From Blasia pusilla (taxonomy: Eukaryota): 64,000 bases of DNA. Every line of letters begins with the position of its first letter. Position 1 is the first letter of the stretch. The notes beneath the pieces were generated by a model. The model ran no database searches, was not told the origin of the DNA, and saw nothing but the letters and a program-made list of their open reading frames with translations. Both the position numbers and the translations under genes were made by a program. The stretch covers positions 29,450,001 through 29,514,000 of the forward strand of contig CM114271.1 of NCBI GenBank assembly GCA_050084515.1, given 5' to 3'. Below, in pieces: positions 24,565-51,789 of the stretch.

Positions 24565-25870
24565 CCTCTCCCTCTCCCCTGGCGGGAGCGTGGATAAAAT
24601 TGTTACGTGACTCTAAGATAGGAACGTCCCAGATATTTGACGCCAGTCAGGTGAGTTTTAGTAGATCCCATTTCATACGGCAAGGAAGACCTTGGCAAGG
24701 AGCAAGTAGATTCCTCGACCTGGATGACTTACATTTCGGGAACTTCTTCTATCGAAATGTATGTCATTAATTATGCACTTTTCTTTATTTTTTACCCTGG
24801 CGGAATGCTTCCTTGCTTTCCATGTAGTAGAACTCTTTCTTTGTCAGAAAGCTGCTACAGTTATGTTTACTTTGCGATATGGAGGCTATCTATTTTTCAG
24901 TAGCATTTTCGAATGAATAATGAGCCATGGAAAAATATTAGTGTTGAAGTAACGAGATTTCCTCTAAGGCAACTAAAAAGATGGCTTTAGTTCCGGGGAA
25001 TGCTAAATCACCAATCGATCTAGAGTGCAACAAGGGAGTGCAGTAGTAATACGTGTTGCATGAGGCATGCTTCAAGGACATGGATTTCCTTCGACACATC
25101 TAAAGTTATCACATCCAAATAAAATAGATGTGAACTGTCTTTAGAGATCCTTTCAAACGTTTCCAAGACATGGATAAGTGTGTATTCTGAATTGATGACA
25201 TGCTAAAGGCATTGGAAATGAGAGCAATGTAGACGTTGATCGTGCGGGAGAGTTTAGAGGTGTACCGGTACGTGTTCGGAGGACAATTCTCAAGGAACAG
25301 CTACTTCTCAAGGCATCATGCCTTAAATATATACATATCGTGCCAACCATGGAATTGGTTGAATTTGGCTCAACTAGTGTTGTGTATCAGGTACAGGAGC
25401 AAAGGAAGACTCAAATATCACATAGGGGACCAAGACATTCACTCCTTGACCTACCAACTACTTACTTGTACGTCACTCTTCTCATTGTTCTCCTTGCGCC
25501 TTCATGTAGGTTAGACCCTTGCTTTAGTGGTTAATTTGATGTGAGTGTAAGGTGAAGTACTATGGTCACTCACAACAAATTAGCTTTATAGTTTTTTTGT
25601 CCAGATCTTCGCTCGAAAAATTTATTAGACCATGGCTATGATGAAATGTACATATCAAAGGATTAAGTCATTATCTAAAGTTGGGTGTGTTACATTTGTC
25701 ATTCAGGAATGTCCTTGGAAGCGTTGGACCACATCGGTGAGGATTGTTAGTGACGATTGAAATCTCTATCGAGATAAGTCCGAGATTAGGTATATGTGCC
25801 TTATCATACTTTTCTTGACTTCACGTGGGTGTGCATTCGTCTAAGATGATAGCTCGTCCAGCCATGGTTT

Positions 25871-28800
25871 ATGGAATTCATTATTGAGCCAAGATGTCAT
25901 GGTTTTGGATGTGTTTGGAATGTTTCAGTTCACAGTTTGCGGGAATTCACTTCCAATCCCCTTAGAATGGATTTGAACCACCCAGTTAGAGTAAAGGCAC
26001 ACGATTCCAAGTTGTGGCAGCGGGAAAGCACACGAGCTAGTGTACTGGGCTGTAAAAGATTGCGATGTCCGTGCAATGACTGTAAGGGTGGGTCTACGTT
26101 GTATATTGGCAAGGTAGAAGCACATTTAAGAAAACATGGACGCTCGGCACTTTGTCGAGTGCCGAATTCTAGGGATGGATGGGACTCTTCACATGAGGAG
26201 TGGCTTATGCATGATCTTGCTGAGAAAAGAAGCCAAGAGGATAAGACAATGGAGTCAGCCCCCACCTTCCATGTGGATGGAAGGGAGAGATCTTCCATGG
26301 CAGATATAGACAAGCACATTGACGTTCATAAAATGCTCAATGATATTTTCCAGAAATACGACCATACACACGAGGATGAAACTGAAGAGATGTCTCTCCC
26401 ATCTGATGAATTACCAGAACCGGGAATGTCAAACGGAGAACCACTATTCAATCATGGAGATGAATATGAGGAGCTTGCTGAAGCTTGCAAACCATTGTTC
26501 CCTCTAGCAAAAACATCAGTTTTGGCTTTCGTCATATTACTATTCAATATTCAAACCACCCATGGCATCCCAAATGTAGCTATTGACAAAGTTTTGAAAC
26601 TCCTTTGTAAGTTGGTCCTACAAACAGGGAACTTGGCGCCACCAAGTTATTATGTAGCAAAGAAACTCATTGGTGAACTAGGCTTAGGTTACAACAGTAT
26701 CCATGTGTGTCCGGCTGGATGTGTTTTATTCCAGGGTGATTTGGCTGAAGCTGAGATCTTTCCATTATGTGGGAAACCAAGGTTCCGGAAAGTGGGTAGA
26801 AAGTTGGTACCATGTAAGGCACTAAGGCATTTTCTTGTCATACCTCGGATGAGACATATGTTTAGATGCAGGACGTTGTCTGAATTATTAATCTGGGCCC
26901 CCTTGAATCAGAGCAAGGATGGCTTAGTAAGGCATACAGCTGATTGCAAGGCATGGCGCCACATGGACAACTTATATCCAAACTTTGCCGAGGAGAAGAG
27001 GAATTGCACGTTTGGGCTAGCTTTGGACGGAGTGAATCCATTTTCAGACAAGTCGAGTTCGTGGTCAACATGGCCCATGCTTCTTGTTAATTATAACTTG
27101 CCTCCCTGGCTCCAGAAAAAAAATTTCTTTGTGATGCTCTCTTTGATCATACCAGGAAAGGAGAGTGTAAATGGAGAAAACATAGACACATACTTGGTTC
27201 CTCTAGTAGAAGAGTTCCAGGAAATGTGGAAAGGGGTTCAATTTCATGACATTCACAAGGTAGGCGGAAGTTGGAACTTCATGTTCAGGGCTACCTTACT
27301 ATGGACGATAAATGATTACTTGGCATACGAAATTGTAGCTGGGCAGAGCCACGGTGGAAAACTAGGATATACTATATGCAGGCCTCAAGTGGATTTTTAT
27401 TTTTCAAAGTCTTGTGGCAAGCCCATATACGGTTGTCATTGTCGATATCTCCTATTGAGCCATCCATGGAGGACCCGTAGGTATGGATCTCATTTCAAAT
27501 GGGGTGCAGAACTTAGACCACGCGTGCCTAAACTACTTTTCGAAGAGGTTATTGGATGGGAAAATTAAAAACATACATATGATCAGAGTGGGGGTCGAGA
27601 AGGCGGCCCTACTGATCCCTATAAGAGAACTGGGGTGAAAAGGCTGAGTATACTATATTCGTTGCCTTACTGGCCAGTATCTTGCTTCCTCCTAAACCAG
27701 TTTCCTATTATTATCTATCTCCCCATGACTTGAACACTTCCCTTTTGAGGATTCAGAACTTGAAGGTGGCATCTGGATATTGTGGAGAACTCTCCAAGCA
27801 TGTGGTTAATCGAAAATTAGGCGATATGAAATCACATGATTATCATGTCTTCATTCAGCAAGTCCTTCCTTATTGCATTTGTGATCTTCTGAAGGACCAT
27901 GTGAGAATGGTGGTTATTAGATTATCCGGAATTTTTAGAATGGTGTGTACAAAGGTATATGATCCAGCTTTATTCGACAAACTCTTGGAAGAGAATGCCA
28001 TAACCCTTTGTCTCTTTGAAATGCCTTTCCCTCCATCTTTCTTCGACCTAATGACAAAATTTTTGATTCATGTTGTAGAAGAATTGGACATGTGTGGGCC
28101 AATAGCATGTCGGTGATTGTATCCAATGGAGCGGTATATGGGGTACATGAAGAAATATGTATGGTCTAAAGCTAGGCTAGAGGGGTGTATGGTAGAAGGG
28201 TATGTGAAGGATGAGGCATTAGGGTTTGTGACAGAGTATATGAAAGGGTTTGAAGACGTGCGGACGTGAGTGTGGGATGATGGGGAGGCAGAGGGGGTCG
28301 TTGGTGTGGAGCTAGAAGGTGCGGGCACTCCGGTTTGACTTTTGCAAGAAAGGATCAACTTAGCACATCATTATGTGTTGCATAATACAGAGGTCATGGT
28401 TGATTGGCAAAGGTAAAACTCTCCAATATATGCTTTTCAGGGTTATAGTTTTGTTAATTACGGTTCGGACTCTCAAAGTGTATATTATTTTGGTATTGAC
28501 ACATTAACTACAAAAGAATGTACTTATACCATTAATATTGTTATTGAACAGGAAATATCAGTCATGTTCGAGAGACATTCCTTTTGAAAAGTGGATTCGC
28601 CTTGCCATTACACAGGATGCAATTGACAACTCAAATGATCTTGATGCTCACCTACTATCATTAGCTATACCTCCTAATAGTGGGGCATTGTCATTCAAGA
28701 GTATGAAATCCTATGGAAACCACTACATGGTAGAAGGGCCAAGTGGTGTGACACCCTTCTCCACTTATGATAGGTGCAGTGTTTGTTGATGAAAAAAGTT

Positions 28801-32500: not shown

Positions 32501-33381
32501 AATTGATTGTTGGATTATATATGCAGAGTGTGGAATCCATAGTCACTATTCAATTGGAAGAAGTGGAAAAGAAGTGGAGCGCAGATTTGGATGATGTGAA
32601 GTTGCAGATGGAACGGCAGAACAAAGCATAAAGTGTACTCATGGAAATGGTGTCCAAGCTTACTTCAAAGGATGTGTCTTTAACACCATACCATATTTCT
32701 AGTTCCCCGCCATCCAATTCTCAACCATATGCAACAAGGGATGAGAAGCTCACATCAAGTAGCCCATTCTCATTCTTCTGCCCTCGATTTTCAATGGTTA
32801 TAACTACTTGTCCTTTCCAGCATGAATATTTCAGAACTGACTTTCTTTGTTTTGAGTAACTTACAATCATTGCTGAACCTATACCAACGTTTGGAGCCGG
32901 ACAATTAGGGAAGAGGAAGATCTCCAAACAAAAAGAGGCCATGGCAACTATACAATCTGGTGGTAAGGAGTGAGTTTAGCTTCACTAGATGTAGGGTCTT
33001 CTAATATAATTACTTGTTGAAGTGAAGAATCTGGTTTTACAATTCATTTCTCAATACTTGGGTTATTTATAGAAGTGCCAGAACGGAGCAACAAAAGGAG
33101 AAGTTCCACAGAAAGTGCAGATGGTAATACTCGAATCACTCGTAAGTATGTCATCCTTCGCATCATGAATTTTTCTTTGGTGTATTTTTCAACCTATCCA
33201 CAAAAAAATACTCATTTCTTCCTACAATGTTCAATGGACTTTGGCGTGCATAATGTGTAGAAATCCTGAGTATGGACAACCAAGCCAAATCATCACTAGG
33301 CAAAAGTCTAGGCTACAGTCTGATGGTTTGAATGAGCAGGAAAGTGAAATCAGATCACGCTCGTCTAAGAAAATAACTAAG
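29533..33381 (+). pseudogene. CACTA ORF2 (TnpA/Ptta-like), multi-exon, 5' part
   Basis: Exon 31585-32114 encodes WNRLVYYWLSEEGKMKAEKMARAKAKV, typical of plant Ptta/EnSpm ORF2; many short GT-AG introns; directly downstream of TnpD. Confidence 0.65.
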
Positions 33382-34328
33382 GTAATTTGTCTCATCTATA
33401 ATGGCATCTTCTATTCAAGGGTCACCAAATACACACACAAACATGCACGATCCCATGCTAACTCATGGCGTCCAAACAACGAGACAAGAAGTACCAAAAT
33501 ATCTCCAATAAAATAAAATCCAATCTCTCTCACAACACCATAGTTCTCACATGTGTGCACTCTCACATGTCTCTCTCAATATCAAACCAAACCTACTCTC
33601 CTAATGAGAAGCTTGGGTTACACACACAAGGCAAGCAAGACCATAGCTCCGCCGCCTCATGCCAAGAGGTTCAACAAAGAGAAAATGAGCTCTCAAGCTC
33701 TCTCTCCTTGAGGTATACCCTCTCCCAAGCTCTCTCCATGATAACCTATGCTTCCAAGTCACCTCCTTGGCTCTTGACCTAATGTAGGAGATCAAGGGAT
33801 ACTTAAAAAAAATAGAAAGTCGATCATATACTCAAAATGGTACTTACCTAAAATAGTAAGTTCCTCAATATGGCTCCAAACGAGCCGAAACGAAGGGGAA
33901 ACGTGCTCTCTCAGGTTTCTCGGGGCCTCATCAAGGCATTCTTGACCTATTGAGCATGTCCTCCACTACTCATGAAGGCGCTCTACTAGATCTCACCGAT
34001 CTATCCTAAAAGACGTGACAGTTATTGCGCGCATACACATCGCTACACAACATACATCGTTGTCACCGAACACACACACAAACACGCACGATCCCATGCT
34101 AACTCATGGCATCCAAATAACGAGACAAGAAGTACCAAAATATCCAATCGCCCCCCTAGTTGGTGATTAGGTCCCTCTAACTCTGGATAGCCATCTATCC
34201 CTACCTACCATGATATACATCTCTCAGACGCTAAGAGCAAGAAGGTCAGGTGCTCATGTGGCCCCATCGTTAATCACCTTCTTGTCATCCATATCACAGA
34301 CATAAGTTAGAATTTATAACAACATACT

Positions 34329-34469
34329 CTATGTACATTTGGGACACATCCATCGTCCCTGAGGAACCCTAGTGAGAGGTGGCGTCAAACATGCCATATG
34401 CCATCCTCTTGAACACCCATCACAGACTTGCATAGTGGCTGCACCACGGGTGGAACCACACAACATACA
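34329..34469 (-). pseudogene. Intact C4HC3 PHD finger at the integrase C-terminus, copy 2
   Basis: CMLCGSTRGAATMQVCDGCSRGWHMACLTPPLTRVPQGRWMCPKC. Confidence 0.92.
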
Positions 34470-37400
34470 CCGCAATCCTGTAGGAACTACTACTAAGCTC
34501 AGATCAATTGTACCGTCAATGTTTGGAAGATGACATGGCGCACAGTTACGCACATGGTCCTTCCAAACCATACCATCGTGTCCCTCCAATAAGAGAACAC
34601 CCGATGGCAAAACCTCACGCACTCTCAAGATGGTGCGCCCTACAGTCACATCCAACGTCATGGGTGTCGTCTACTGCAAGTAGACATAGTCTCACTGATG
34701 AAACTTCTAGATAGTAGGTTGATAACCATCTCCCCGAATAGTCGCATACCTCAATATATCTCGATATTGCGCAATCGCCAAGTTCTCAAATGCCATGGGC
34801 ATCATTCTCTGAAACAACTTAGCCTTCTGAGAACATGCTCGCATCCATACATCAAGATCATCAAGGTTCAACACCTCACCAACATCTCGACAAATGGCCG
34901 TAGGTAAATCTGGCTCTCGGCCATAAAGCAACAAGTACGATAAGAAAGATGTTGAGGATGCCTGCTTGCTGAATCTGTATCTCATTGCCAACCAAGGCAA
35001 CTAAAGGTCCCAATCTCCTAGGTGATCTCTCTGGAAGCCATACTTGCATAGTCCTCTCTTCATCGTCTGCACAACCGGCTCTTCTAGTCCATCCGCCTCA
35101 GGATGATCTCGCGCAGTAGTGCGGTGGTCGATCAGTGCCTGATCACACAAGGCCTGAAACTCCCGCGGAACTCTGTACCCTGGTCTATCAACACCTCAGC
35201 TAGTGCGCCGTAATCACTCAACACTCAATCTAGGAAGGCATACGCTACTCCCTCATTCACTTTGTCATGCAATGCAACCAACTCTATCCACTTCGAGAAG
35301 TGCTTGACCATCACCAACACATAACGACTATGGCGCTCCGTCAAAGGCAAAGTTCCTACAAAATCCAAACTCCATCTATAACCTAAACCCATGATCAAAA
35401 GTGGATGCAACTGTGGAGTCAGAGCATTGAACGATGCTCGGACTCAATCACACGTTATGCATCAGGCAATAAATTGCTGAACGTCAGTCTGCATGCCTCG
35501 CCACCAATACTGAATCTTGAGCAAGTTGTACGTCCGCTTCACTCCAAAATGACCCAACTCCTCATGGGCATGACGCACCAAACGTGCTCTCTGCAAAGGA
35601 TAGGGCACTACACGCACTCTACCATCCTCCCACACTCGCAACACATATGTGCCATCCCACCGGAACCATCTGGCTCGTTGTAGGATTCGATCTCGCTCCT
35701 TACAAGCTTCTAGATCTAAGAACTCTCCATTAGACCTCACCATCAAAGTCTCAGCAATCTGGCTCTCCATAGCCAACAAGCCCAAATAGGCTGATGCATG
35801 CCATCTTGGCACCAACTCCTCATCACTCTCACCATGCCAATGAGCTCCAGTCGCATCTCGCTAACTTGGGCATGGATTATAGCTCAAACCATCTGCATCC
35901 TGGTTGAGCATCCCAGGTCTATGCACCACTTAGAAGTCATACTCTTGCAACAAAAGAGCCCACCTCGCAAGCTTCCCTGTAAGCTTTTCGGACTCCATCA
36001 ACCACTTAAGTGGCTGATGATCAGTAATGATGGTAAAGGGATTGCCGAATAGATAATATCTGAAATGTGCGACAGTCCACATTGCAGCGAAGCATTCACC
36101 CTCATACGAGCTATACTTTGCCTCTGCAGCATTGTTCAAGCGACTAGCGTAAGCCACCATGAACTTTCTACCATCATCGTCATGTTGGGTAAGCACGTCT
36201 CCAAGCCCCAACATGCTCCAATTGGTATGCAACTAGAAAGGACACCCCATGATCGGTCTCCTTAATATGGGCACGGACGTCAATCTATCTATGAGCATCT
36301 AAAATGCTCTCTCTTGCTCATCCTCCCAGTGTCATTCTTGATCCACCTTGGTCATCAAGGTTAGCGGCTTCCCAATCAAACTGAAACCCTTGACGTACCG
36401 TCGATATAAGTTTGCCAATCCCATGAATGCACGAACTCGACTCACATCTGTAGGGCGTGGAATGCGTGAAATAGCCTCTACCTTTGTTAGTTGCACACCC
36501 ACGCCCCCGTGGTATATTGTATGACCCAAGTACTCAATCTGGTCATAGAAGAACTTGCACTTGCCAGGATGGAGCATCATCCCATGTAACTTCAATTGTT
36601 GAAACACCTCCTCTAGATGTCGCTCATGCTCCTCAACCGTGGCGCTAAAGACTACGATGTCATCAATATAACACCTAGCAAAATCCAGACTTGCCAAGAT
36701 CCTATCCATGACCCTCTGAAACTCAGCCGAGGCATTCTTTAACCTGAATGGTAAGAACCGCCACTGGTACAAACAATCCTTCCCATGAGGATCGATGCCC
36801 CAAAATGTCATCTTCTACGTGTCCTCCAATCTGATAGGCAGCTGATGGTATCCGGCTTGCAAATCCAATGAACTGAAGACCTTTGCATGCCCAATTGCAT
36901 CAAAGATCTCCTCAGGGGTGGGCATGGCATACCCATCGAACTTTGTGTATCGATTGATAGGTCGGTAATCTCCACACATCCGCCTATCCGTCTAGTTGCC
37001 ATGCACATCCTTCTTGGCGGGCATGACAGTGGCAAATGCATACTCTCCATGCAAAATCTCCACTAGTCCTGCTCCAACCAAGTCTTGGCTCCTAATCTGA
37101 ATCAGAGCCCTCTCCATGTCACTATACCTGTAGGATTTTCAGGAGATCGGCGTATCACTCGACAACTCAATGCGGATCCCTGGACCCTTCATCATACCCA
37201 AATCATGCATACTAAATGCAAAACAACTCCTATAACTCCTAAGGAACTGGTGTATCCGATGCCGCTCTCCTCCTATCAACTTAGGGCCCATATCTGGCTC
37301 CCAAGTCTCCATCGTGACTACGGTAGGACTCTCCGACGCGGATGTCGGTGGTTGCTGTGGTGCAACCCCATCTCGGACAATAGAACCCTCATCTCCACGT

Positions 37401-37589
37401 GCAGTACCTGGAACCACGCTCGATGTTGTCGCTATCATCTCCTGGGGTACCTGCAAAACATCCCACGAAGTCCAAGAGTATCTCTCTCGATCGCCGCTTG
37501 TGTGTCGATCTCCTCGGGTCTCGCCCCCAGCCACTGCCTCAACCGTCTCAGTAGGCATCGAGCTCACCAACGTTCTTTTGTGATTAGTC

Positions 37590-38583
37590 GCATCCTCAAA
37601 CGACGTTGCTCACCTACTCCTAAGCTAAAAATCCATGTCAAAAAGTTTAGGTCCATCGCCTGACCCAAGACATGACGTCGTGATGCCTCCGATAGTGATG
37701 GTAGTGCCGTCACTCCTATGGGGAATCCCATCGCTCCCTCTCGCTCATCGGCGTTGGGCTCCACCAACCCCTGTACCTGGTCATCCCAAACCAAGCCAGG
37801 TTTGGCCTCCTTGAATGCATAGGAAGCTAGAAAAACTCACCAATGTGGGAAAGGTTGCTCATGGCATGCCAATCCTATTGACCATGGTCAACGGCGGTCG
37901 ATCATCGTGCCACATTGCTTGTGATCGACGGCCCGGATCCAATATAGAAACCACCAATAAATCGGAGGGACGCTCCACTCTCGCATAAGCCCTCCATAAA
38001 ACCTCATGTGGTATGAAGTTGTTCCACCAAAGAAGCGGGCGGTGTGCTCTAGAACCTACACTCGCAGCATCTAAAAATACTACCATGCGCGCACTTGATG
38101 TGCACTCGTCATCCTACGGGACCTCGAATCGCCCAAAATCAGCACATTGTCCAAAATGTATGTTGGAGAATGAGGTCGATGCTCATGTAAATGTCGCAAG
38201 ATCCGCATCATCTCCCAAAATAACCTAGACCGAGTGTTAGCTAACCCGCTACCTTGTCCAGCACTCGATTGGCCCTGGCGCGGCCAACCAGAAATGGCCA
38301 AGTCTATGGTCCCTACCCGCTCCAAGTCCTGCGCCCCCAACAATGAAATGTCCCTTGGTAGGGAACTTTGGTAACCCTCAATGGTGGATGCAAACAACAA
38401 GTTAAGAAAACATAGGCGGAATAGCACCACATGGTGAAGTGAAGCACACCTTGTAATATCATCAATCTCCACATATAGGTACTGCTGCACGCGCACTCTA
38501 GCGTGCAAAACAGCAGCTAACCTAGTATTGATCCCTCCAAAGAGATCCAACACCCGAATACCCTCCTCTGAGATGCACCACAC
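37590..38583 (-). pseudogene. DNMT3-like C5 cytosine methyltransferase domain inside pol, copy 2 (all motif regions present, frameshifted)
   Basis: IRVLDLFGGINT (I), YLYVEID (II), PRDI (III), DLAISGWPRQG (IV, C>R), SRLFWEMMR, YILDNV (VI), FLDAASVGSRAHRPLLWWNN (VIII), EREGAMGFPIGVT...SEASRRHVLGQAMD (IX/X). Confidence 0.92.
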
Positions 38584-41500
38584 AGTCGGTATGGTGTCAA
38601 AAGGGTCATGGTAGCACTCCTTCCTACGTGGGGTTCCTTTGACCCGTCACACTCAAGTGCAAACATCTCGCTCCACGCGGTCTGCACATGCTCTGTGGCT
38701 AAGCGTCAAAGCTCCTCAATCAAGCCCTAAAGCAGCACCTCTCCTCCACGGACTGATGCGGCTACCATGACACTCCTCTCCATAGAAATGTCAAGAATAG
38801 GAGTATCCTCTGTATGGACATGTCCCTCAATCAAATCACTAGGCCAAGTGACGGCATTGCTAAATGCTGCTAAGGTCGCCATCTCTCCTGGCCGTCGCTA
38901 GATTACTACACCTGTGAATTGAACAGGTAATGAGCTAAGGCGCCCATCACTTGACTGCCATCCTGGTCTGTAGAACGTTGACTCCTCACAATAATCCAGG
39001 GAAAATCCCATCGGATATAACACTGCTCCACCAACCAAGACATCATAGGACTCTGCATCAATCACTATCGCCTTGGCTTGCACCACGGACTCATTTGTAG
39101 GACGTCTCGGGCAAATCCTCACCACGACCTCCTGTCGGGTGATATACTATATGGTACTCGATCCACCCAAGGATATCTATATTTGGATGGACAACGCTCC
39201 ACATCGGCTCTTGTCAAGCCCAATCCTCTGAATGACGCTTTCCCCAACATCAGGGGTTGCGGCTTCTAAATCCAACAAGGCGCGTTGCGTACTAAAAGCT
39301 CTACCTCCAAGACTCACCAACTGGAAGACCTCTTCCCGGTTATCCAACAACACAACACCAAGAGAAGTCATGGCATGCGCTATCACGGATCTAGCGGGCA
39401 TCTCCGCCATCCTAGGTATCGTAGCGTGCCATGAATCTGACGTGGACGGCCCGAGCATCTGCTCAAAGGGCAGGTCCATCACCTTCTCTGCAATCACCTC
39501 TGAACGTGATGCAAGAACTCCAACTCCATGCTCACATAGTGTAGCGGCCACTTGAAAAGCCTCGGTGGGCTCACCTCCCAACATCATAACATCGGAAGTA
39601 GAAAATAAAGGACTGCGGTATACAACGATGGTCGCCCCCAACAACGTGCTTGACACATGCCCCTCCTGAATCAGCAATAAGAGTCGTCGCACTCACTTCT
39701 CCCATCGCCCTCCGTGCCTGCACACCAACAACATCACCAACTCTCCAAGAACTCTGATCAGGACCCATCAATCGGGTCCTCATCGCCTCGAACAACATGA
39801 AAGACTAAGGAAGCCTGGTCTGTTTCCTATTTTTCCCTCGTTGTGGATCCAACTCTACGGCTGCTCCATACGTCACAACTGCGGCAGCCTCCATCTGGGC
39901 AACCCTGCACATCCAACCAGGATCCTCCATATCTCTAGTTGCTCCATATGATATCGATGCCACAAATCCGTCATCGGGTAACCTCAATGCCATAGCGGCA
40001 ATCTGCACTTGTAGGCGTTGTATCTGAACAGCCATCTCAGCCTCATGCCCGGCGTCTCCCTCGACGCGTCTAGGTGGTAGGACTCTACTTCCTCCACAGG
40101 CGGCTCCATCACCCTATCAGGCAACTCCAGCTCCTCGTCCTCCAACGGGACCAACTGGTGCACGATCTCTAGGCCCACCCGCACTGGCTTCTTGCCTTGG
40201 TGCCCTCTCTAGCCCTCGTTCCGGACGTAACTCAAGGTGTAAATAGAAACACCTGGCGCGTGTATGACCATACCTCTGACAGTAGTCACACTGATAACCT
40301 CGTGGTGTAGCACCATCTCCTCCTCCATATCGAGGCACACGTCCATGACCTTGACCAGTGCAATCATGCTGATGATGGGCTCCACCACATGACCAACAAA
40401 TACTCATAGGTGGATGCTGCTAAGCCGCATATGAAGGCGCAGGTCTCTATGGCACAGCCTCTTGGTATCCTCCCTAAGCTCGTGGTGCCATAGTCGACCT
40501 ATCTCGGAATCCACGTTGCTGCACTCGTGGTGTAGACAATCGTGACTGCTCTTGCCAAGAACCCATGGTGGCTACGCTCTCCTCTGCCATGTTGCGCTCA
40601 ATGTTCTCAGTGGTCCTAAAAACATCTCTCAACGTAGGGGAGATGTTCATAAGAAGCACCCCTCCCGCACATGTGTCCACAGGGTCCGATCTAGCATCGC
40701 ATACCATGACTGGATAGCCTAAGCCTCTATCACCCTGAGTGACGTTGATCAACCGGCGCAAGCGAGTGTAAGCCTCATGCAAACTCTCACCCGGCGCCTG
40801 TGGAAGTCGTGGATGCTCCGCAACTTCTCCGCCTGTACCCCCTAATAGCTCACCCTCAACTCACCGAAGATCTCAACCATGCGGTTGAACCTGGGACGAA
40901 CCCGACTAAACGGTGCAACTGCTCTAGTGTGAATGACCCCTCCTAAAACATCACTAGTGGAAGAGGAAGTAGCCTCTTGTGACTCCTCCTCCTCATCTGG
41001 GAACGGATTTGTCCATGACACATAGTGTGGGTCATAGTAGAGTCGCCATGCCTCAATCTCCTGGGCATATCTGTGGGAGAACTCATGGTAATCGTCCATG
41101 GGCGCCCCCTCTAAATGTTGGAACAAACTGTTCTATGCTGCAAACGGGTTGAACTCTCTAGAGTTCCTAGCCCAATGTGAGTCACACCAACTCCTAAACT
41201 CCGCAATGAAGTTGTGTAGCTCTATAGTGTTTACAGCACCTGAAAACCTACGCAGTCCTCTACTCTGGTCGTCCATCTCGTACGCCCAAGTGGTAGGACC
41301 ACTCAATGTATACGGTGGATCACTAAAACATTCCTCTACACGCTCCCCCTCATCTGAAGACGACACAGAAGGAGATCGAGGTGGTCTCTCACGCGGAGGC
41401 CCTCAAAACCTTGCACCACTCTAGGTAAACCCTCCAGAGCTACTCTCAGGTCCATTACCTCGCCTCTCAAAATCCCGAAAGGATGCAGTGATGACCCTTG

Positions 41501-42160
41501 TGCCCCTCTCTCACAATCACTCTCAACCTCACGTGTAATCACTTGATCACTCAATCTAACATGCGGCACTTAATCTACACTCTCTTACTGAGACGTATAT
41601 TGTGCGGCAACAAGCGACGTGGTGTGGCAATCGCCTACCATCCTATTATCTCATCGACAAGACATACCCTCAACTCTGGACATCCCACACAGGTCTATGT
41701 CCCCTAAACCCATACATCAATGATGCTCTAAGCATATGCACCAAACCCAATATCCCCAAATAACTGCCCAATACCCGTAATTCCCTCACACGTGCAGGGT
41801 AAGAGACTAGAATGGGTAACTTGACAATAATGTCGATATCGCTCCTCAAAAATTGTAATCTCGACCCGAACTCAATCGTGATGGAAACTCCTCCAATCAG
41901 CAAGTCGTACTCCTCTCGTATTGACGTTGCTCAAACCTCTTCGATGTGCGGTGTAGGTCCAGCAGTATGGTGCAGCACAGAATGGCTAGAAATGGCACGG
42001 CACTCAGGAATGGGATGTGGCACTCAGCGGCTTCAATCAGAAATTCACACACTCTTCTCCTTAGTGAAGGAGCGGCTCCACGATCGAGACGATGCGGTAT
42101 CGTGTCGAGAGTCTTTCTTCGAGCAAGGGCGGGCCTTCTAGCTGCAGTAGATGCGGTCGA

Positions 42161-43285
42161 TGCAAGGTGAACTCTCTAACAAGTTCTCCTTTTTCAATAC
42201 AAAATTATGATGTACACTCTCCATTCTCTCACGACAAGTATCACAAATGGAAGTGTCGAGGCGATCACTTCTTCGTAACATCGGACCCCGAAATTCCTAA
42301 CTATAAAATCCCTATAAACTATTTTACGCTTGTACACGAGGAAGATAGCACAACTAGTGTTAAACCCTACTTGAGTAGGCCTATTGACATCCATGGATCG
42401 CTATATAAGGACATACAAAGTACAATCCCATGTCCTTCCATATGTGACGATAGGAAGAATCACCGGAGTTGGAGATTGCATGACCTGGTTCATGAACGCC
42501 TCCCCAAAGTGATAAACTAAATAATGAGTGAACCAGTGCCTATCTACAAAGAGCACCTTGACATGGTAAGGATTGAGGAAAGGAAAGTCGGGCACAGCTT
42601 GTGCTCCACCCCTATCCATGCTTGACAGACATTCTCTACTCTCCTCAAGAATGGGTTTTGGTGGAGTTATTCTCCCAAGAGGGATAATCCACTCTCATTG
42701 GGAAAGTAACAAGCCAAAACATCCACTATTTTAGTATGATTAAACTCCTCTACGGTGACAAATCTCTCATCCCCACACACACACACCACACTCTAGAAAC
42801 CTCTCGAAGAATAGACCATGGTCAAGTTACTCTCCCAAGAGGGGTGATCCACTCTCATTGGAAGAGCAAGCAATCCCAAAGCCATACACTCAAGAGAGAC
42901 ACGAGAGACTCAAGATGTGGAATAGAAGGTGATGAACCCTTGAAGGTCCCTCCTCTTTATATACTCACAAGGGATCCACGAGAGTACGAAATAGAGCTTA
43001 TCTTATCTTGTGCTACATGGCTTCCTCTCAAGGCTTAGCCAATAACATTTTGACACAAGTAGATTTCCTCTTATCTCTTCCAAAATATCCTCTTTTATCC
43101 ACTTGATATTTTCCAAATTACCCCAGCTAACCTAGCCACCAACCAAGACTACTTTTGCTTTTCATTAAAGCAACTACTTTACTTTTATAAAGTTATCTTT
43201 TATTAATTACCTCCTTTTCTAAAGTTGGGCCCGCACTTAATACTAATGAAACTCTATCTAACACTTAATGACGAAGGAATTTACA
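42161..43285 (-). mobile_element. Probable solo LTR of an unrelated family inserted in the leader of copy 2
   Basis: About 1.1 kb absent from copy 1; ends TGCAA...TTACA; TATA-like gagtatataaagagg on minus (~42952-42966); internal ~37-bp duplication. No TSD found. Confidence 0.5.
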
Positions 43286-44253
43286 TACTGATTGATTTTA
43301 CTATACGACAGCGGTGCGGCCATGAGCGGCACGACGCGGAAATCGGTAGCACGTTGCAGCTACGAGCGTGACGACACGGTACTCGATCGTCGTCGTCGAG
43401 TGGCTATCAATCACAACATAGTAGCATGAAATAAAAACTCAAACGCCATAACCCGAGGTCATCTGCCATCATTGGTTAATGACAAAACTGCGATGACGGT
43501 GGCAGCCAAAACAAAGTACGTGGTGGCGACGCAAGTCAGAGAATCATTGGTCGTCGTGGAAGACCCTCCACTCCGTAATGGCGGAAATGGAAACCAAAGG
43601 GTGGAAAACGGCCGAACGCGGCTCTGAGCAGAGCTAGGTAGCGGAAGCAGCCGAAGGCGAACGGCGGACGGTGGGAATCTGGTATGTGTACTATCCCTAA
43701 GTGTGACCCACCTATCGCACAAATTCATCATCTCTTTCTCATGGCTTAAGGTCTTATTCTGAGAACCTTCACCATGTAAAGTGTGGGAGTATGGGCTCAT
43801 TACTTCAAGCACATAAGCACTTGAATCCCTCCTCCTACAGCACCATGAATTTTCTCTCCCTCTACATCCTAGGAATAAGTTTTCTATGCACCCTTAATCC
43901 CTTCTTCGTCCAATGGAGTACATGCAAGGCTATCATCACCACCAACTTTCTGTGCAACCTCATCTAGAGTATTATTATATGTACATGAATTTGAAAGTTT
44001 CATATCTAACCCGATTTTTGGCTCATCTTCCACATGTGGAATTGTAGGAAACTTCCACCAATCATCATCAACGATAGAATCATATATTCCTACCTTATCC
44101 ACATGTTCTTGACTAAAAGTGGATCTTCTCTTCAAGCACCATAACTGCCACTCTACACTATCTAGTAACTCACCACTTGTCTCACATCGACCTTCACTGG
44201 AAAGAAGTGCTTCTAGATCAGCTCGGCTCCCTTGTGGTTCACATGATCATACG

Positions 44254-45520
44254 TGTCACGTCTTTTAGGATAGATCGGTGAGATCTAGTATAGCGCCTTC
44301 GTGAGAAGTGGAGGACAAGCTCAGTAGGTTAAGGATGACCTGCTGAGGCCTGAGCAGGTTTCCCCTTTGTTTCGGCTCATTTGGAGCCATATTGAGGAAC
44401 TTACTATTTTAGGTAAGTACCATTATGAGTATATGATCGACTTTATATTTTTAGTAAGTGGCCCTTGACCTCCTACATTAGGTCAAGAGCCAAGGAGGTG
44501 ACTTATGGAGAGATCTATCCTAAAAGACGTGACTTATGGTGACTTATGGAGGAGCATAGGTTACTATGGAGAGAGCTTGGGAGAGGGGAAGGGTATACCT
44601 CAAGGAGTGAGAGCTCATTCTATCTTTGTTAAACCTCTTGGCATGAGGCGGCGGAGCTATGGTCCCTTTCCTTGTGTGTAACCCAAGCCTCTCATTAATT
44701 AGGAGAGTGGGTTTGGTTTGACATTGAGAGAGACATGTGAGAGTGCACACATGTGAGAACTATGGTGTTGTGAGAGAGATTGGATCTTATTTTACAAAGA
44801 GAGAATGAGTGAGTGAGAGAGCTTCATGGGGGAGCTCGCTGGTTGCTTGATGTTTGGTGTAGGTTGGGGGACGGTGTTCACCACTTTATGGCTCATGGGG
44901 GTGCTCACCGGAGCAAGAGCCATGCGAGTTTGCTGTTTTGCTTTGCTGATTTTTTGTACGGGAGAGAGGCACGCGGAAGGGCTGCCCAATTTTCTAAAGG
45001 AATTGAGTATGGGGGTAGATTGCTCCATGCCAGTGCTCTCGGGAGCACTATGTAGCTTGCTGATTTGTGTTCTCATAGGTTTTAGATTTTTGTTGGGAGA
45101 AATCAGCGCGGAAGCGCTGTCAAATTTTGTGTAGGAGAAAGAGACGTTGGGCTTTACAACAGTCCCCATTAGTTTTTATTGGAATATTTGATTCAAAATA
45201 TAATATTTTTTGACGTAACTGTAGATCGTGAAGCTATGCACGCTGTGCAATAGACAGTGTGCAATTTGGAGTTACGAGCAAAAATATATGGTCAATCTTG
45301 CAAAACTGCCATTGCTAGGTGATTTTTAGGGTTAAATCGTTCAAACCCTAAACCAGCCGCCACGCCGGCGGCGGTCATCGCCGTCATAGTCACCGTCAAT
45401 GGTCAACCGTCACCATCAATAGTTAATCGTCACCGTCAATAGTCAATCATCATCATTAACGGTCAACTATCACCATCAACGGTCTGCCGTTACCATCAAC
45501 GGTCAACCGTCACCGTCAAC
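44254..45520 (+). mobile_element. 5' end (repeat A + leader) of the DNMT retroelement, inverted relative to copy 2
   Basis: Starts TGTCACGTCTTTTAGG; colinear with the reverse complement of 23531-22440; ends in the 20-bp tandem array where copy 2 breaks off. Confidence 0.9.
45391..45520 (+). repeat. 6.5 x 20-bp tandem repeat (caccgtcaatggtcaaccgt) in the retroelement leader
   Basis: Visible directly; a more CpG-decayed version is at ~22430-22505 in copy 1. Confidence 0.85.
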
Positions 45521-47640
45521 GTGAGTGAATCTGAACAAGATGAAGAGGAGGAAGAGTTACCAAATCTTTACGAAGATATGCGAAAGCAACGAATATTGGC
45601 GATCAAGGCTTGTGAAGCAGCCATCTTTGGTAGTACTGATCGTATGTTACATGTACAGTGAGCGTGACTAGTGGGATTTATAGAACACTTGTGACCGTGA
45701 ATGCTAGTAAGCTTTACTTGTAATGTTGTATACATGGTCATTGACTTGTTTCACTATCTTTTGAAGTGTATCAAATACACTAGGCTCTGGTTGGAGAAAG
45801 AGACATACTTCTCTACCCTAAACCCTAAACCCTAACTCCTAAACCCTTTTGCTTACAGGAGATAAAGTCTACATCTCCTTCAAAGAGTGTCATACACTCT
45901 AGAGATTGCACGCTAGTTTCGTTTGGAGGAAATTAGATTGGCGTATTGTCTTCTGATAAGGAGGAGGATTATGATAGACATGAGGAAGATGAACCTTATC
46001 ATGATCACTTACGCAAGCCATGGGTAATCTTCAACCTCTTTTATTCTCAGATGGTGTTGCACTTATGCAAGTGGTGACTTTGTCTGGATAGAGTATAGAG
46101 CCATTGCCATGAAAGAAAATATTCCTTATCTTGATTCTCTTTTGAATATTGCAAAATCCTCCCAAACGCATAAACGGAGGCTATGAAAGAGAAACTTCTC
46201 CCGATGTGCGTCGACGTTAGAATACGGCTTGAGAGGGTAGAGAGAGAGAGAGAAGGGAAATACAGATTGAGCTTTTTACCCATAGGTTGGACTCCATCAT
46301 TAGGACTTGGAGTTATGCTAGGGATGGACATGATCGCCTTGCACTAGGAGGTAGTTCAGATCCTCCTCTATAAGAAGATGGGTGTGGATCCCTTTGATAG
46401 GGATCCGCTTGATCATGTTCAACACCCTAAGTTTAGTGATAGTATAATTAGAACTATTGTAAAAAGTTGAGCAGCAAATACAAAACAAAAGAATACATCA
46501 AACTTGACTATTTCACGTCTCTTCGAGTCAAATATTCTCTAAATCAGAAAAGAAATACTTACAAATGGCACACACGGTTGTTGTGAGGATACACTACTAC
46601 CAGTCCATTGTTATTGTTTTTGTTGTGCATAAGGCCATGAACCATATCCTCGAGGCGGGGGTGTAGCAAAGATTGCATGTGGACAAAGTCCGTGTCCGTG
46701 GACATCTCTATGTCCATGGACTTATGTCCGTCCTATGGAAGGACTTGTCTGTATGGGCCCCACCTTTCCCTTCGTTCTTACTACCCTTACTTGCCTTCGT
46801 GTTCCATACTCCCCCATTTCTTCTTCCTTCCACCTCCACCTCCACTCCCTCCTCCCTCATTGCTCCTCTCATCCTTGCCTTACCTTCCATCATGGACTAA
46901 AAGTGTGGGTCCCACCTCTTGGAACCCATGTCTGTGGACATGTCCAGACTTGTCCGTCCATGTCCGTCCTAAGGAAGGACTTGTCCATTTTTGTGCAACC
47001 ATGGGTGCAAGCGAAAACCACCAACCTAAAGTGGGATTCCATTGCATTTCGGTAGATGGCCATGCCTCACTAGAAGATGGTGGTAAGAGTGTGATTTAAA
47101 AGTCATGAACACCAAGAAGCAAAGGATAAATATTAAAGCTTTCTCGAATTTGCAAGTAAAGTTTATGTGTTCTTTGTGGATATGCAATAACATTATACAT
47201 GAATGTGTGTTTCCATTCTCATTTTTTAGTACCCAACCAGGTGATCGAGGCTTGTGGGCTTTTCAAGGAAGTTACCAATAGATGGATAGAGCTTCACCAA
47301 GGTAGTGAATGTGGTTATAATAGTTAATCAACTATTGTAATATTATTATGTTAAGTTAGCATTTAATCAATTGTTTTGAATTGGTATGTGTGTGGTTGCG
47401 CTGGGGAGATGAAGTACATCTTCCGCAACCAAAGCTCAGCAGAAATATATTGGATCATGGAGTAGTCTCAGGCTTGAGTGGCCGATACAAGTTCTATGGG
47501 AAGGATATCGGTCTGAGTTTGGTGAAGGTGGACCTAAAAGATACAACGCAACCTGATTACCAACTATGGGAACCAAACACAATGGATGAACATGCCCAAC
47601 TCCCACTGAGCGACGTGATGGGGACCTCTATCATTTGACC
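45521..47640 (+). pseudogene. CACTA ORF2 (TnpA-like), 3' exons
   Basis: Acidic exon SESEQDEEEEELPNLYEDMRKQRI; last exon GVVSGLSGRYKFYGKDIGLSLVKVDL...LWEPN...LSDVMGTSII* resembles the EnSpm TnpA C-terminal domain; lies 1.2 kb from the right TIR. Confidence 0.55.
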
Positions 47641-48454
47641 AGAGTTAAATTTTAAAAAGCTTTCTCATTAGAAACTCTGATTTTGATAACTTTCACAACT
47701 TTGGAGATGGCATAAAGACTTTTTCAAGCCATTATTTTACCTTATATGCAGTGTTTCCATTCAATCTCTATTTTGCTATTTTTCATGTTGAAGAGATTGT
47801 GACTCTTATCTATAAGGACTCCTCAGGTTATGGTTGTATTGTACACAGGGTAGTTATGCATGTACACATCCTTCATCTGCAACATTGTGATTATGATTAC
47901 TACATCTTGAACATCTCACTCACTTGTTATTGTTTGGGAGATTTTAGAGACAACAATGCATCCTGAACATCTCACTCGCTTGCTCTTGTTTGGGAAATTT
48001 TAGAAACAACAAAGACTAATAATATCAGAGCGCACTCTTCTGCAAAAAGAAAGTTTTAATGTTCTCATGAAAACAAAATAACTCACGATAATTGTAGTGT
48101 GACCCTTAAAAATAACTGACATAGTCATTTATATGACTAAGCCAGTCTAGATAATAACCAAATCAATCATTGTATATGACTCATCGAGTCCTTAATGTAG
48201 CTATTGTAGTGAGAACAGTACCAATGTAGTCATTTAAATGACTCAACCACTTAGTACATGACTCGTATAGTTATTTTGAATGACTCACTAAGTTGGAATC
48301 ATAGCATTCTATTACCCGATGAATCATAGAATATGACTCATATAGTTAATGATTATGACACATTAATTTCCAGCACATGTCACAATGACTACAGACATTC
48401 CATTTACACGTGTCGTTGTATGATTGCATGATGAAAATGTTATTTCTAGTGTTG

Positions 48455-48818
48455 TGTCACATGGCTGCATGTGATTTGTTATTCAAATCCTACTCAACAT
48501 GCCATATGATTACATGATATGGCAAGTGTAGTTATAACTGAGTCATTTACGACACATGTCGTTCATTGGTGAAAATAATATCATCCTCATGCCATCTCAT
48601 ACGCGGATGTGGCATAGTGACGTGGCACTTACATGTGGTATATTAGTCATACATCAATGACTAGAGCCATTTACCGATTGGATAGCTCCAGTCATTTCTT
48701 GTAAATGACTTGGTTAATATGACTCTAACGGTCAAGAGTCATTCTTAGTCATTTACCACGAAAAGTGACTCGACCTAGTAATTTGTTGGAGTCATAAAAA
48801 CCAAGATTTCCTCTAGTG
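48455..48818 (-). repeat. Right CACTA terminal inverted repeat / subterminal region
   Basis: Ends in ...ctctagtg; imperfect inverted match to 5540-5920. Confidence 0.85.
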
Positions 48819-50112
48819 AGAGGACGATGAGGAGGTGAAAGGTGACTGACATATTCACGAGGATGGAGTGGTCTTGGATTACCTGCATACTGGCATTGTT
48901 GTAAGCATAGTGGGTGCTAGAGAGCGCGATCGGATCCTACAATAAGCCAGACGATTTTGGTGGGAGGGGACACATGTATTACGAGTTTGGCAAGATGGTA
49001 GAGTACGTGTAGTGCCTCATCCTTTGTAGAGAGCACGTTTGGTGTAGCATGCCCACGAGGAGTTGGGTCATTTTGGAGTGAAGCGGACATACAGCTTGCT
49101 GTAGATACAATTTTGGTGGCGATACATGCAGACTAACGTTCAACCGTTTGTTACAAGGTGCATGGTATCTGATCAGGTCCGGGAATCATTCAATGCTCTG
49201 ACTCCAAAATTGCATCCACTACCGATCATGAGTTTAGGTTATAGATGGAGTTTGGACTTTGCAAGACTTTTACCTTTGACGGAGCGCCATAGTCGTTACG
49301 TGTTGGTGATGGTCGAGCACTTCTCAAAGTGGATAGAGTTGATTGCATTGCCTAACAAAATGAGTGAGGGAGTAATATATGCCTTTCTAGATCGAGTGTT
49401 GAGTCATTATGACATACCAGCAGAGGTTTTGATTAACTAGGGTACATAGTTTCGCAGACAGTTGTAAGCCTTGTGTGATCAGATGCTGATTGACCAGGGC
49501 ACCAATTCGTGAGATCATCCTGAGGCGGATGGACTAGCGGAGAGGGTTATGTAGACGATGAAGAGAGGATTACACAACTATAGCTTGCAAAGAGGTCACC
49601 TAGGAGATCGGGACCTCCAATTGCCGTGGTTGGCGATGGGATACACATTCAACAAGCAGACATCCTTAGTGTCTTTCTCATCGTACTTGCTGCTTTATGG
49701 CCGAGAGCCAAATTTACCTGCATTCTTTTGTCGAGATGATGATGTATAGATGCGAGGATGTTCTCAGAGGGCTAAGTTGTTTCGGAGAGTGATGCCCATG
49801 GCGTTTGAGAACTTGGCGATTGCGCAACATCGGGATGTTGTGCAATTGTCATGTATGCGACTATTCGGGAAGGTGGTTATCAACCGACTATCTCGATGTT
49901 TAATCAGGGAGACTATATCTACTTGCAGCAAATAACACCCACGACATTGGATGTGATTACCGTGGAGAGAGTGTGAGAACTCGTTCTCTCTTTGTTGAAC
50001 CTCTTGCAATGAGGCCGCGGAGCTATGGTCCTCCTTGCCTTGTGTGTGTAACCCAAACCTCTCATTTGGAGAGTCGGCTTGGTTTGACATGAAAGAGAGT
50101 AGGCTTGGTTTG
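48819..50112 (+). mobile_element. Fragment of a third copy of the DNMT/PHD retroelement family (integrase + part of repeat A)
   Basis: MQTNVQPFVTRCMVSDQV...RWSLDFARLLPLTERHSRYVLVMVEHFSKWIEL closely matches copies 1 and 2; 49962-50112 matches repeat A. PHD region deleted. Confidence 0.88.
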
Positions 50113-51789
50113 ATCCGACTCCAGATCTGGAGTCGGATCAACATCGCAACACGGAGCATCACAGCACGGAACATAGCGCACCATAGCAAACTGGAGATTC
50201 AACGTGGAAATCATGTCCTTTTGAAAAAGTAAACGCAAGAAAATTTCAAAATTGAAATTCAATGTGCCATCACCATGGTGCTTCCAACATGGGATCAAGC
50301 CATCCCCATGTCATGCCACCCGACGGATATCAAGTGTGCGGATATCCGCCAAGGACCCTCCGTCATTCCCACCGGCCTAATGACGAATTCACGGCCGCCT
50401 AGTGGGCGATCCCCACCCAGCCCGGAGAACCCCGAGTTACAATCAATACGTCACCTTCTCACAATATTGTCCCAAGAGCCATTGCAGCATTTTGAACACT
50501 TGAAATAATGTCGAAGCGTCCAAACAATAAATCAATCTAGTTCTCATTTTACACCACATCAACATGCTTGGACATGTGGAGATTGTGGCGGATCATTGTG
50601 GATAGAGGATGATTCTTGGATGACCTGGTAAAACTTACACTTGTGGGTGAAGAAACGGATATGTCCGGTTAAGTTTAGGGGGATCGGAGAGAGTGACACC
50701 CTCTGAACTAATTTTTAGATCCAGGAATCACTGAAATTTACGAGGATGGGGTTACGTGGTGCAGCCATGTTGGTCGGTGGGATCGAAATGCTCCTCGGCC
50801 CAGTCTTCAAACACAAACCCAGATGTCTAGGAGCTTTAGCGAAGCCTGCTCTGTCAAATATTCGGGTGCGTTCTCATGCCTTACAACAGATACAGAGTCT
50901 ACAGTATTGTCCGCTTGTTGAAGGTCTAGGGAGTATGTAAGTTGTCATTGTTTTGTGATATTCTGGTGAGTTTCTCTCCCCACGTCAATCGCGCATTCAT
51001 GCTTTTCCTTGTTTTTGTGATACCGAGTTTACAATGACTGCAACCCAGTCCTAGGTAGTGAGTTCTAGTGAGTCTGAGAATTACTCTGTGGTAGGTCTTC
51101 GAGTTTTCAGAATCCACAGGTAGTGGGTGTTCATATTCCCATCATTTGTGACTACATCCCATTGTCCTATAGTTGAGATTCGATTGGGCAAGCCGGGGAA
51201 CTAAATGTGTGTGAGACAGGGGTCGGAGAATGTTGCAATTCAGGTCAGAGACTGCATTTTAGGAGGCTTTGTCGATTTAGGGCTGAGTTGAATGAAGAAA
51301 AGAAAGCGTGTCGAATGACTTGATTAGGGACCCTTGCTCCTCTGAAGGGGGACAATGCTGATCAGCTGGTTGAAGCAGATAACTTTATAAGCTCAGCTCA
51401 AGTCATGTGTGACCTGAATCTTTTAATTTCATGAATAGGCTACAGTCGATTTCGAATGGTGATTGGGTCCTGGGCTCTGCCTGTTTACGCACTGTTAGTT
51501 TTGTATCTGATCACGTGGAACGAAAATGTGGTGCACATGAAGTGTGTAGTCCGCACTGCGTAATGTTCATGCATACAATTCCCATGACTGGAACTGGCCA
51601 ATCTGCCTGCGAGAAGTGTTTGCCCTGGCTAGACCTAAACGAGCGTCATGGGTTTGTGGAAAACAGGCGCAGGCAAAAATAGGACAGAGCAGATCATCAG
51701 TAGCCCGTATAGTGTACGGGTGCAACCGTGACTCTGTCAGGAGGATTTCTTGCTCCGCAACTGCGAAAGAGGTTTCTCCAAACCAGTCC

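Follow-up and report, generated by a model that had tools for sequence, protein, structure and literature searches.

A Ty3/Gypsy retrotransposon family with a DNMT3-type methyltransferase domain, represented by decayed copies in the genome of Blasia pusilla

Results

Two Gypsy copies with a methyltransferase between protease and reverse transcriptase

The window analysed here is a stretch of 64,000 nucleotides of Blasia pusilla DNA (GenBank assembly GCA_050084515.1, contig CM114271.1, positions 29,450,001 to 29,514,000 of the forward strand), and it almost certainly contains two old, inactivated copies together with two fragments of a Ty3/Gypsy retrotransposon family that bears a DNMT3-type cytosine methyltransferase (hereafter the DNMT domain). 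An earlier note on this DNA, drawn up from the letters alone, had described the domain at 37590-38583 as complete and as embedded between the protease (PR) and the reverse transcriptase (RT) of a Ty3/Gypsy polyprotein; these coordinates fall within the span 38604-37579 recovered by tblastn. The Ty3/Gypsy identity holds up, with gag including zinc knuckles, PR, RT, RNase H (RH) and an H2C2-type integrase (INT) all found. Copy 1 and copy 2 show 77-91% DNA identity. Their principal features are as follows, with P0036 and P0152 denoting related proteins used as queries and ORF an open reading frame.

About 33421-43611, minus strand: copy 2 of the element, to which a rearranged 5' end at 44253-45418 is added
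39760-41402, minus strand: gag of copy 2, zinc knuckles included (P0152 residues 1-538 by tblastn; ORFs)
38664-39638, minus strand: protease region of copy 2, immediately upstream of its DNMT domain (P0152 residues 561-876 by tblastn)
37579-38604, minus strand: copy 2 DNMT3-like domain, motifs I-X (Pfam, translation, tblastn of P0036 and P0152, PDB match)
35120-37264, minus strand: RT, RNase H and integrase of copy 2, the integrase with H2C2 and core parts (Pfam RVT_1, RT_RNaseH, Integrase_H2C2; tblastn of P0036 residues 1330-2058)
34335-34469, minus strand: PHD finger of copy 2, at the C-terminus of pol (Pfam PHD, 41 bits; ORF 34329-34670)
9254-23532, minus strand: copy 1, whole, its body interrupted at 14870-19899 by a long interspersed nuclear element (LINE) and a 177-bp tandem array
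12889-13600, minus strand: DNMT3-like domain of copy 1, limited to motifs I-VIII (Pfam, tblastn, PDB matches to DNMT3C, DNMT3B and DNMT3A)

RVT_1, RT_RNaseH and Integrase_H2C2 are found by Pfam in both copies, as is the PHD finger (PF00628). The protease gave no Pfam match from the window ORFs themselves; the protease region of the relatives P0010 and P0287 matches aspartyl-protease Pfam families. In both copies, tblastn with P0152 as query places the DNMT domain right after the protease region and ahead of the RT, which upholds the claim that one and the same site is occupied twice.

The C5-methyltransferase motifs quoted in the earlier note are all recovered in minus-strand translations. Copy 2 reads IRVLDLFGGI, YVEID, DLAISGWPRQG, LFWE, YILDNV, DAASVGSRAHRPLLWW, EREGAMGFPIGVT and SRRHVLGQAM; copy 1 reads LVISGWPCHG, LFWE, YILENM and DAASVGSRAHRPRLWWTN. 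The Pfam profile for C-5 cytosine DNA methylases (PF00145), suggested earlier as a check, matches the copy 2 ORF 38080-38646 with 27.5 bits and the copy 1 ORF 12889-13359 with 26.0 bits, both above the curated cut-off of 22 bits. Motifs I (FGG), II, IV, VI, VIII, IX and X stand in normal order and the DRM permutation is not present. When all PDB chains were searched with phmmer, DNMT3A/3B/3C were the best matches for copy 2 (E 2e-4), copy 1 (E 2e-3) and the relative P0001 (E 3e-9); no DNMT1 chain was among the phmmer PDB matches, and for the window ORFs M.HhaI and DRM2 reached E values of 0.3-0.5 only, the weakly matching DRM2 differing from the window domain also in its permuted motifs. For a natural relative whose ORF is uninterrupted (L009:9608-11008), AlphaFold yielded a model with a mean block predicted local distance difference test (pLDDT) score of at least 90 for most of residues 131-467. 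The Foldseek matches listed for this model (ranks 1-50) were solely DNMT3A/B/C chains, led by 6u8p_A (E 1.4e-17, target template modelling (TM) score 0.80), and the target TM score against DNMT3 catalytic-domain chains was 0.78-0.82. The assignment as DNMT3-like with unpermuted motifs is thus confirmed by the PDB matches and by the fold of the relative's model. Motif order I-X is shared with the catalytic domain of the host enzymes DNMT3A/3B, from which the window domain differs by residing in a polyprotein and not in a stand-alone gene; no Pfam match to PWWP or ADD domains was obtained in the ORFs scanned around it. PF00145-type clusters in the ESM Atlas came from bacteria and viruses.

The description of the domain as complete stands in part. 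Copy 2 has all the motifs, but they are split over three frame segments (38604-38119, 38074-37835 and 37824-37615) by two frameshifts; PR stands in place of PC, and DNV in place of ENV. Copy 1 cannot be called complete: its domain is broken by two in-frame stops and a frameshift, and it has lost the C-terminal third with motifs IX and X (copy 2 37380-37944 is unmatched in copy 1 by blastn). Copy 1 does retain PC and EN(M) along with the RAHRPRLWW block, and copy 2 has motifs IX-X, so the lesions are complementary, as had been noticed. Given the lesions in both, neither copy is able to encode the enzyme. The combination of PC and ENV in an uninterrupted domain is missing from both window copies and is present in the relatives P0152 and the L009 ORF.

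Purifying selection on the domain

Copies 1 and 2 were compared codon by codon, in frames taken from protein matches and with gap and stop codons left out. The ratio of nonsynonymous to synonymous substitution (dN/dS) of the DNMT domain was 0.20 (95% bootstrap 0.13-0.31; 204 codons), which answers the earlier proposal of such a check with a clear indication of purifying selection. The same ratio was 0.25 for RT-RNase H-integrase (0.20-0.34; 663 codons) and 0.22 for the PHD region (0.10-0.42; 111 codons), and it was 0.92 for the gag linker (0.62-1.46; 327 codons) and 0.74 for the protease segment (0.52-1.11; 308 codons). Reading the DNMT domain in the wrong frame, shifted by one or two bases, gave control values of 0.79 and 1.75, and its differences are distributed over codon positions 1, 2 and 3 as 33, 22 and 76. 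From the low ratio we infer that the lineages behind copies 1 and 2 held the DNMT domain under purifying selection of a strength like that on the RT. The value of 0.20 matches the Ka/Ks of below 0.2 given for the domain of the Klebsormidium elements (PMC5890265).

Relatives and domain architectures

An exhaustive HMMER search of 1.84 billion representative proteins returned 573 at E≤1e-3. In 43 of the 58 stored relatives of at least 600 amino acids, the DNMT domain is accompanied by PR, RT, RNase H or integrase of Gypsy type. Two architectures occur, namely PR-DNMT-RT-RH-INT, as in the window, and RT-RH-DNMT-INT, exemplified by P0034 (with a PHD finger), P0054, P0066, P0080 and others. In a tree of the DNMT domain (65 rows), the window copies pair at 99 and are then joined by P0152, also at 99; the RH-DNMT-INT type is gathered in a single clade with support (32 rows), and Closterium falls within a clade that is mostly of the PR-DNMT-RT type (13/17). 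Organism-named relatives comprise 11 proteins of Closterium (Zygnematophyceae) and one weak match from Chlamydomonas eustigma. The Closterium polyproteins P0287-P0290, 32-37% identical to the window ORF, share the order CCHC-PR-DNMT-RT-RH-INT (as seen in P0288); unlike the window element, they show no PHD finger in their Pfam lists.

Continuity of the reading frame is seen in these relatives. P0152, a metagenome protein of 1280 amino acids, has gag-PR-DNMT in one frame and keeps PCQ, ENV and RxR as well as the signatures of motifs IX and X, and in P0036 and P0161 gag-PR-DNMT-RT-RH-INT lie in continuous ORFs. The relatives therefore carry the DNMT domain in frame with PR and RT; a domain out of frame with pol was what the earlier note had named as evidence to the contrary. 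Metagenome contigs of the Joint Genome Institute (JGI) contributed 137 related stretches, from which 80 loci were kept (L001-L080). With P0152 and P0001, these loci are the closest relatives at 45-56% identity to the copy 2 ORF; they share with the window element the order GAG-PR-DNMT-RT-RH-INT-PHD and the split repeats described below, and they differ from it in that some keep an uninterrupted DNMT ORF (4 loci). The ten long loci all have GAG-PR-DNMT-RT-RH-INT as far as the locus extends, with the PHD finger in 7/10 and with PR, DNMT and RT in one frame in four (L009, L012, L022 and L078). Motif retention across the metagenome loci is 72/80 for LFGG, 61/79 for LENVP and 56/66 for MGFP; LGQA is kept in 36 of 64 loci, and 14 more have a stop at the Q codon. 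As an observation apart, P0041 and P0047 combine the C5 methylase with a Dam-type adenine methylase in one protein, P0041 also having an RT; they may be compared with the adenine methyltransferases in retrotransposons that a 2026 preprint describes.

Family size and transcription

One genomic and three stranded RNA sequencing runs of the same species label were mapped on window positions 33001-53000 at ≥80% likeness. With both mate classes summed, DNA depth was 1912 and 1864 in the two DNMT bins, 2914-3184 in the RT/integrase bins and 2045-2120 in the protease/gag bins, as compared to 0.8-12 (median 3.2) in seven low-copy bins. This points to a domain-bearing family of several hundred genome equivalents, a rough figure. 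The DNMT bins reach about 0.6 of the RT depth across the family, so that the situation in which most members would lack the domain does not apply.

Together with the evidence from constraint and from the relatives, the read depth bears on the notion that the domain is a one-off passive capture, or that the locus is an assembly chimera with a host DNMT3 pseudogene or an unrelated fragment. The frameshifts in both copies would be in keeping with such an origin, and continuity of the pol frame is not demonstrable in the window alone; even so, we consider it highly improbable, given that the domain occupies the same site in two diverged copies, is represented family-wide at the depth just given, was constrained (dN/dS 0.20), lies within continuous ORFs of P0152, P0036 and P0161 and recurs in the same order in Closterium and metagenome sequences. 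In addition, neither PWWP/ADD domains nor intron-like structure were observed.

RNA over the DNMT bins amounted to 40-59 with the first mate on plus against 1-6 on minus in the three runs. Two plus-strand controls, the host gene at 51.5-52.4 kb and the element fragment at 48.3-50.3 kb, had the opposite bias, which identifies the element RNA as sense. A one-base indel relative to copy 2 at 37831, near its second frameshift, is found in 643 of 1597 family DNA reads; the lesion of copy 2 at this point is thus not family-wide. An RNA-only joint from 36118 to 37195 skips 1076 nt of the RT (11-24 reads per run, in all three runs) and was not seen in the DNA reads sampled. A canonical intron was ruled out as its explanation, since the ends are TG..CA, with five other letters between; the joint probably reflects a transcribed deletion derivative.

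These data can also be understood to mean that the family is extinct in this genome, in which case the DNMT domain was once functional, all copies are now relics, and the RNA is read-through or low-level transcription of silenced or deleted copies, with no methyltransferase activity at present. This reading is possible, if doubtful. It draws on the broken state of copies 1 and 2 and of the two fragments, on the A repeats (see below) being only 87-91% alike within one copy, on most DNA reads (150,442/208,382) being less than 90% alike to copy 2, on the RNA joint just described, which shows that deleted copies are transcribed, and on most metagenome relatives being broken as well, with only the 4 loci retaining an uninterrupted DNMT ORF. 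On the other side, sense exceeds antisense RNA by about 10-40 to 1 over the full length of the element, in favour of transcription driven by the element and against a random source; four sampled copies out of several hundred reveal little on the youngest, and likeness to copy 2 is no measure of the age of other copies.

Split direct terminal repeats

The element is bounded by repeats of two kinds, A and B, in the order A1...B1-A2-B2:

34029-34144, minus strand: copy 2 repeat B1, internal, just upstream of A2; holds the 83-bp unit
33509-34020, minus strand: copy 2 repeat A2, 512 bp, like a long terminal repeat (LTR), starts TGTCACG (blastn)
33421-33503, minus strand: copy 2 repeat B2, its 3' terminus, shorter than B1; 94% identity to B1 over 83 bp
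44253-45418, plus strand: repeat A1 of copy 2 along with the untranslated 5' part; matches copy 1 23532-22473 in inverted orientation
About 23087-23532, minus strand: copy 1 repeat A1
9457-9545, minus strand: copy 1 repeat B1
9254-9415, minus strand: copy 1 repeat A2, truncated

DNA depth is about 1190 at 33470 and about 50 at 33126-33358, and this drop beyond 33421 indicates that B2 is part of the element. Clipped reads with varied sequence accumulate at the outer start of A (1054 at 34020) and at the end of the B unit (1956 at 34029). The full A1...B1-A2-B2 layout is found in three of the ten long metagenome loci (L009, L024 and L078), where A is 320-337 bp and B 115-116 bp in length; A1 and A2 are visible in L012 and L070 before the locus ends. 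The repeats of L009 are positioned at 5910-6246 and 14544-15113. Plain LTRs were ruled out for the window element, because the 83-bp B unit comes after the 3' A repeat, reaches high copy in the read data and is found again in relatives.

Inverted termini of DIRS1 type, which copy 2 taken alone would suggest (33509-34020 versus 44794-44254), were likewise ruled out. The segment 44253-45418 is the inverted equivalent of the copy 1 5' end, lies beyond a low-copy bin (43673-44339) and has RNA on the opposite strand, and the 5' end of copy 2 is therefore regarded as rearranged; about 640 bp of low-copy DNA separate the body of copy 2 from the inverted A1. Copy 1 displays the native direct repeat arrangement. 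Most simply, 43612-45418 is one inversion that took in upstream flank. The joints 33503 to 34143 and 34144 to 44794 were considered as signs of circles and dismissed as cross-mapping between copies of the A and B repeats.

Split direct repeats of the form A1...B1-A2-B2 are the layout of tyrosine-recombinase elements of the PAT/Ngaro type. Elements of the DIRS order employ a tyrosine recombinase; the window element instead has a DDE-type integrase (Integrase_H2C2 and the integrase core), and no recombinase family was detected among the ORFs scanned, which covered part of the 5' region.

Host context

An ORF for a DUF599 membrane protein at 58181-58804 (minus strand) flanks the elements. Its best named relatives are from Marchantia, Riccia and Calypogeia (61-72% identity), followed by Selaginella at 56-57% and the top-ranked angiosperms at 45-47%. 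A quick tree of 31 rows places it within the liverwort clade, in a group with Marchantia and Riccia (support of 100 by the Shimodaira-Hasegawa-like approximate likelihood ratio test, SH-aLRT), and from this nesting the host is a land plant. At 51550-52428 (plus strand) lies a host gene with weak RNA support, which codes for a two-domain protein of the stress-responsive A/B-barrel (Dabb) kind. Both the Dabb and the DUF599 gene are situated in low-copy DNA.

Discussion

Based on the evidence obtained, the liverwort family is of the KnitGypsy-Dnmt3 kind and new to land plants, the likeness being judged against the published description. KnitGypsy-Dnmt3 of the charophyte alga Klebsormidium nitens combines DIRS-like repeats with Gypsy domains (PMC5890265). 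In common with the window element, it has the Gypsy domain set, an unpermuted Dnmt3 in Pol and a streptophyte host, and its DIRS-like repeats fit the split direct repeats found here, as judged from the paper's description and not from sequence. The host is an alga in the one case and a liverwort, thus a land plant, in the other, and the copies of K. nitens are comparatively few (PMC5890265) while those of the present family are on the order of hundreds. SymbioDIRS-Dnmt3 of Symbiodinium is alike in placing a Dnmt3-type domain on a retrotransposon and differs by its DIRS backbone, tyrosine recombinase and dinoflagellate host; its authors consider it an independent acquisition (PMC5890265). The statement in the earlier note that retrotransposon-borne DNMTs are reported from dinoflagellates and charophytes agrees with that paper, and so does its remark that no well-described land-plant family is known with what we found: no description of a land-plant or Closterium Gypsy-DNMT3 was encountered in the open full-text literature (supplements, figures and subscription journals being outside this scope), and the flanking DUF599 gene nests in liverworts. 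Under the term "streptophyte Gypsy-DNMT3", the accessible parts of PMC12344493, bioRxiv 10.64898/2026.05.21.726589, PMC11982613 and PMC9033089 contain the Klebsormidium case only. Chromoviruses offer a further parallel in having a chromatin reader at the integrase C-terminus, which is a chromodomain in their case and a PHD finger here.

An active member of the family would have a single gag-pol frame for gag, PR, the DNMT3-type methyltransferase, RT, RNase H, integrase and PHD finger, bounded by A1...B1-A2-B2. The methyltransferase would be made within Gag-Pol and could be freed by the protease, either alone or attached to the RT, to carry out CG methylation of the new cDNA or the fresh insertion. 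New copies might thus arrive with a host-like mark. Self-methylation of this sort was proposed by de Mendoza et al. for such elements (PMC5890265), and SymbioDIRS-Dnmt3 performs de novo CG methylation in yeast (PMC5890265). That the Gag-Pol methyltransferase modifies the element's own cDNA or insertion is quite possible, and we advance it tentatively; the family identity and the self-methylation mechanism, taken jointly, are considered probable.

Several points weigh against this interpretation. Copies 1 and 2 are pseudogenes, copy 2 being devoid of the catalytic Cys, and no intact family copy was seen in the window. The motif IV Cys, present in 79/80 metagenome loci, is a biased count because the motif belonged to the search pattern. 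In yeast, the isolated Klebsormidium domain gave no detectable methylation, a result from which its authors draw no conclusion, since DNMT3B failed as well (PMC5890265); in the literature covered, as far as its text was accessible, catalysis is reported for no Gypsy-Dnmt3. The copy number is rough because over half of the DNA reads fit only in part (121,333/208,382 partial alignments), and reads of other Gypsy families may have cross-mapped. RNA reads at least 99% alike to copy 2 make up only 18-25 of the 8396-9364 mapped per run, from which it follows that the transcripts come from other family copies, and transcription is not proof of mobility. The call of the host lineage is from one gene, DUF599.

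An alternative is suggested by the PHD finger, whose best PDB relatives are CHD4, PHF12, KDM5A/B PHD1, KAT6A, DPF3, ATXR5, BHC80, AIRE and UHRF1. PHD fingers of this set mostly read unmodified H3K4, and unmodified H3K4 also gates host DNMT3, via its ADD domain. Carried on the integrase, the PHD finger may steer integration, or methylation, to chromatin with unmodified H3K4. The methyltransferase could be active with a target other than the element's own cDNA, be it host chromatin (at or near the insertion site, or in trans) reached through the PHD finger or RNA, or else serve as a non-catalytic DNA-binding module. The constraint on the PHD region (dN/dS 0.22) and its kinship with CHD4, PHF12, KDM5A/B PHD1, BHC80, AIRE and ATXR5 lend themselves to this explanation, as does the lack of detectable DNA methylation by the Klebsormidium domain in yeast noted above. 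The catalytic residues are nonetheless kept in P0152 and across the metagenome loci (LFGG, LENVP and MGFP at the frequencies stated), which argues against a purely structural role, and the place beside the RT suits action on cDNA. On balance, a target other than the element's own cDNA appears somewhat unlikely.

Broader still is the idea of a Gypsy-Dnmt3-PHD lineage with split direct repeats that land plants received from streptophyte algae and that remains active in liverworts, its polyprotein equipped with a DNMT3 writer for its own cDNA or insertion sites and, on the integrase, with a PHD reader of the H3K4me0 type. We regard it as unlikely. If true, a transposon would have its own version of the scheme by which host DNMT3 works (ADD plus catalytic domain), present in hundreds of copies and able to shape the host methylome.

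Returning to the family as identified, its importance lies in bringing to land plants a retrotransposon DNMT3 that, in the accessible text of the published record, has so far been documented in dinoflagellates and one charophyte alga. Related model liverworts allow genetic work on the DNMT3, DRM, CMT and MET1 pathways, so that the question why a transposon bears an enzyme that normally silences it becomes testable; candidate answers are that it methylates its own cDNA, that it mimics gene-body methylation or that it is targeted to chromatin in which H3K4 is unmethylated. For transposon classification, it is of relevance that a PHD finger and split direct repeats occur on an integrase-bearing element and that the PR-DNMT-RT and RH-DNMT-INT architectures are both abundant in environmental sequence.

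Other features of the window

The two fragments of the family are the following:

48922-50100, plus strand: third family fragment, the C-terminal part of the integrase joined to part of repeat A (blastn; tblastn of P0036)
164-1209, minus strand: fourth family fragment, gag only (tblastn of P0152 residues 16-384)

The third fragment is without the PHD region, and RNA joints connect 34637 to 49960. The LINE lies within copy 1 at 14865-19708, in the interval that separates gag from the protease, and is preceded by five of the 177-bp tandem repeats; it has an endonuclease/exonuclease/phosphatase domain and a 577-residue RT ORF. Copy 2 has at 41945-43312 a segment of about 1.2-1.4 kb that is not in copy 1 and is skipped by 78 DNA reads (42093 to 43311). 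Within it, RNA molecules start sharply at two points, 43099 and 43121, and there is a break in the reads at 43235; a further repeat insertion, transcribed in its own right, is the probable explanation. A weak RT match at 2921-3328 (minus strand; 31% to P0036) probably derives from another Gypsy family. Rfam and tRNA scans of the window gave no matches, and the CpG observed/expected ratio (0.68-0.74 in the element, 0.41-0.74 in the flanks) was not informative. At 25853-27568 (plus strand) there is an uninterrupted ORF of 571 residues with a CACTA-type Transposase_21 domain, and a short tandem array (6-bp period; regularity 97%) adjoins the 5' end of copy 1 at 24426-24576.

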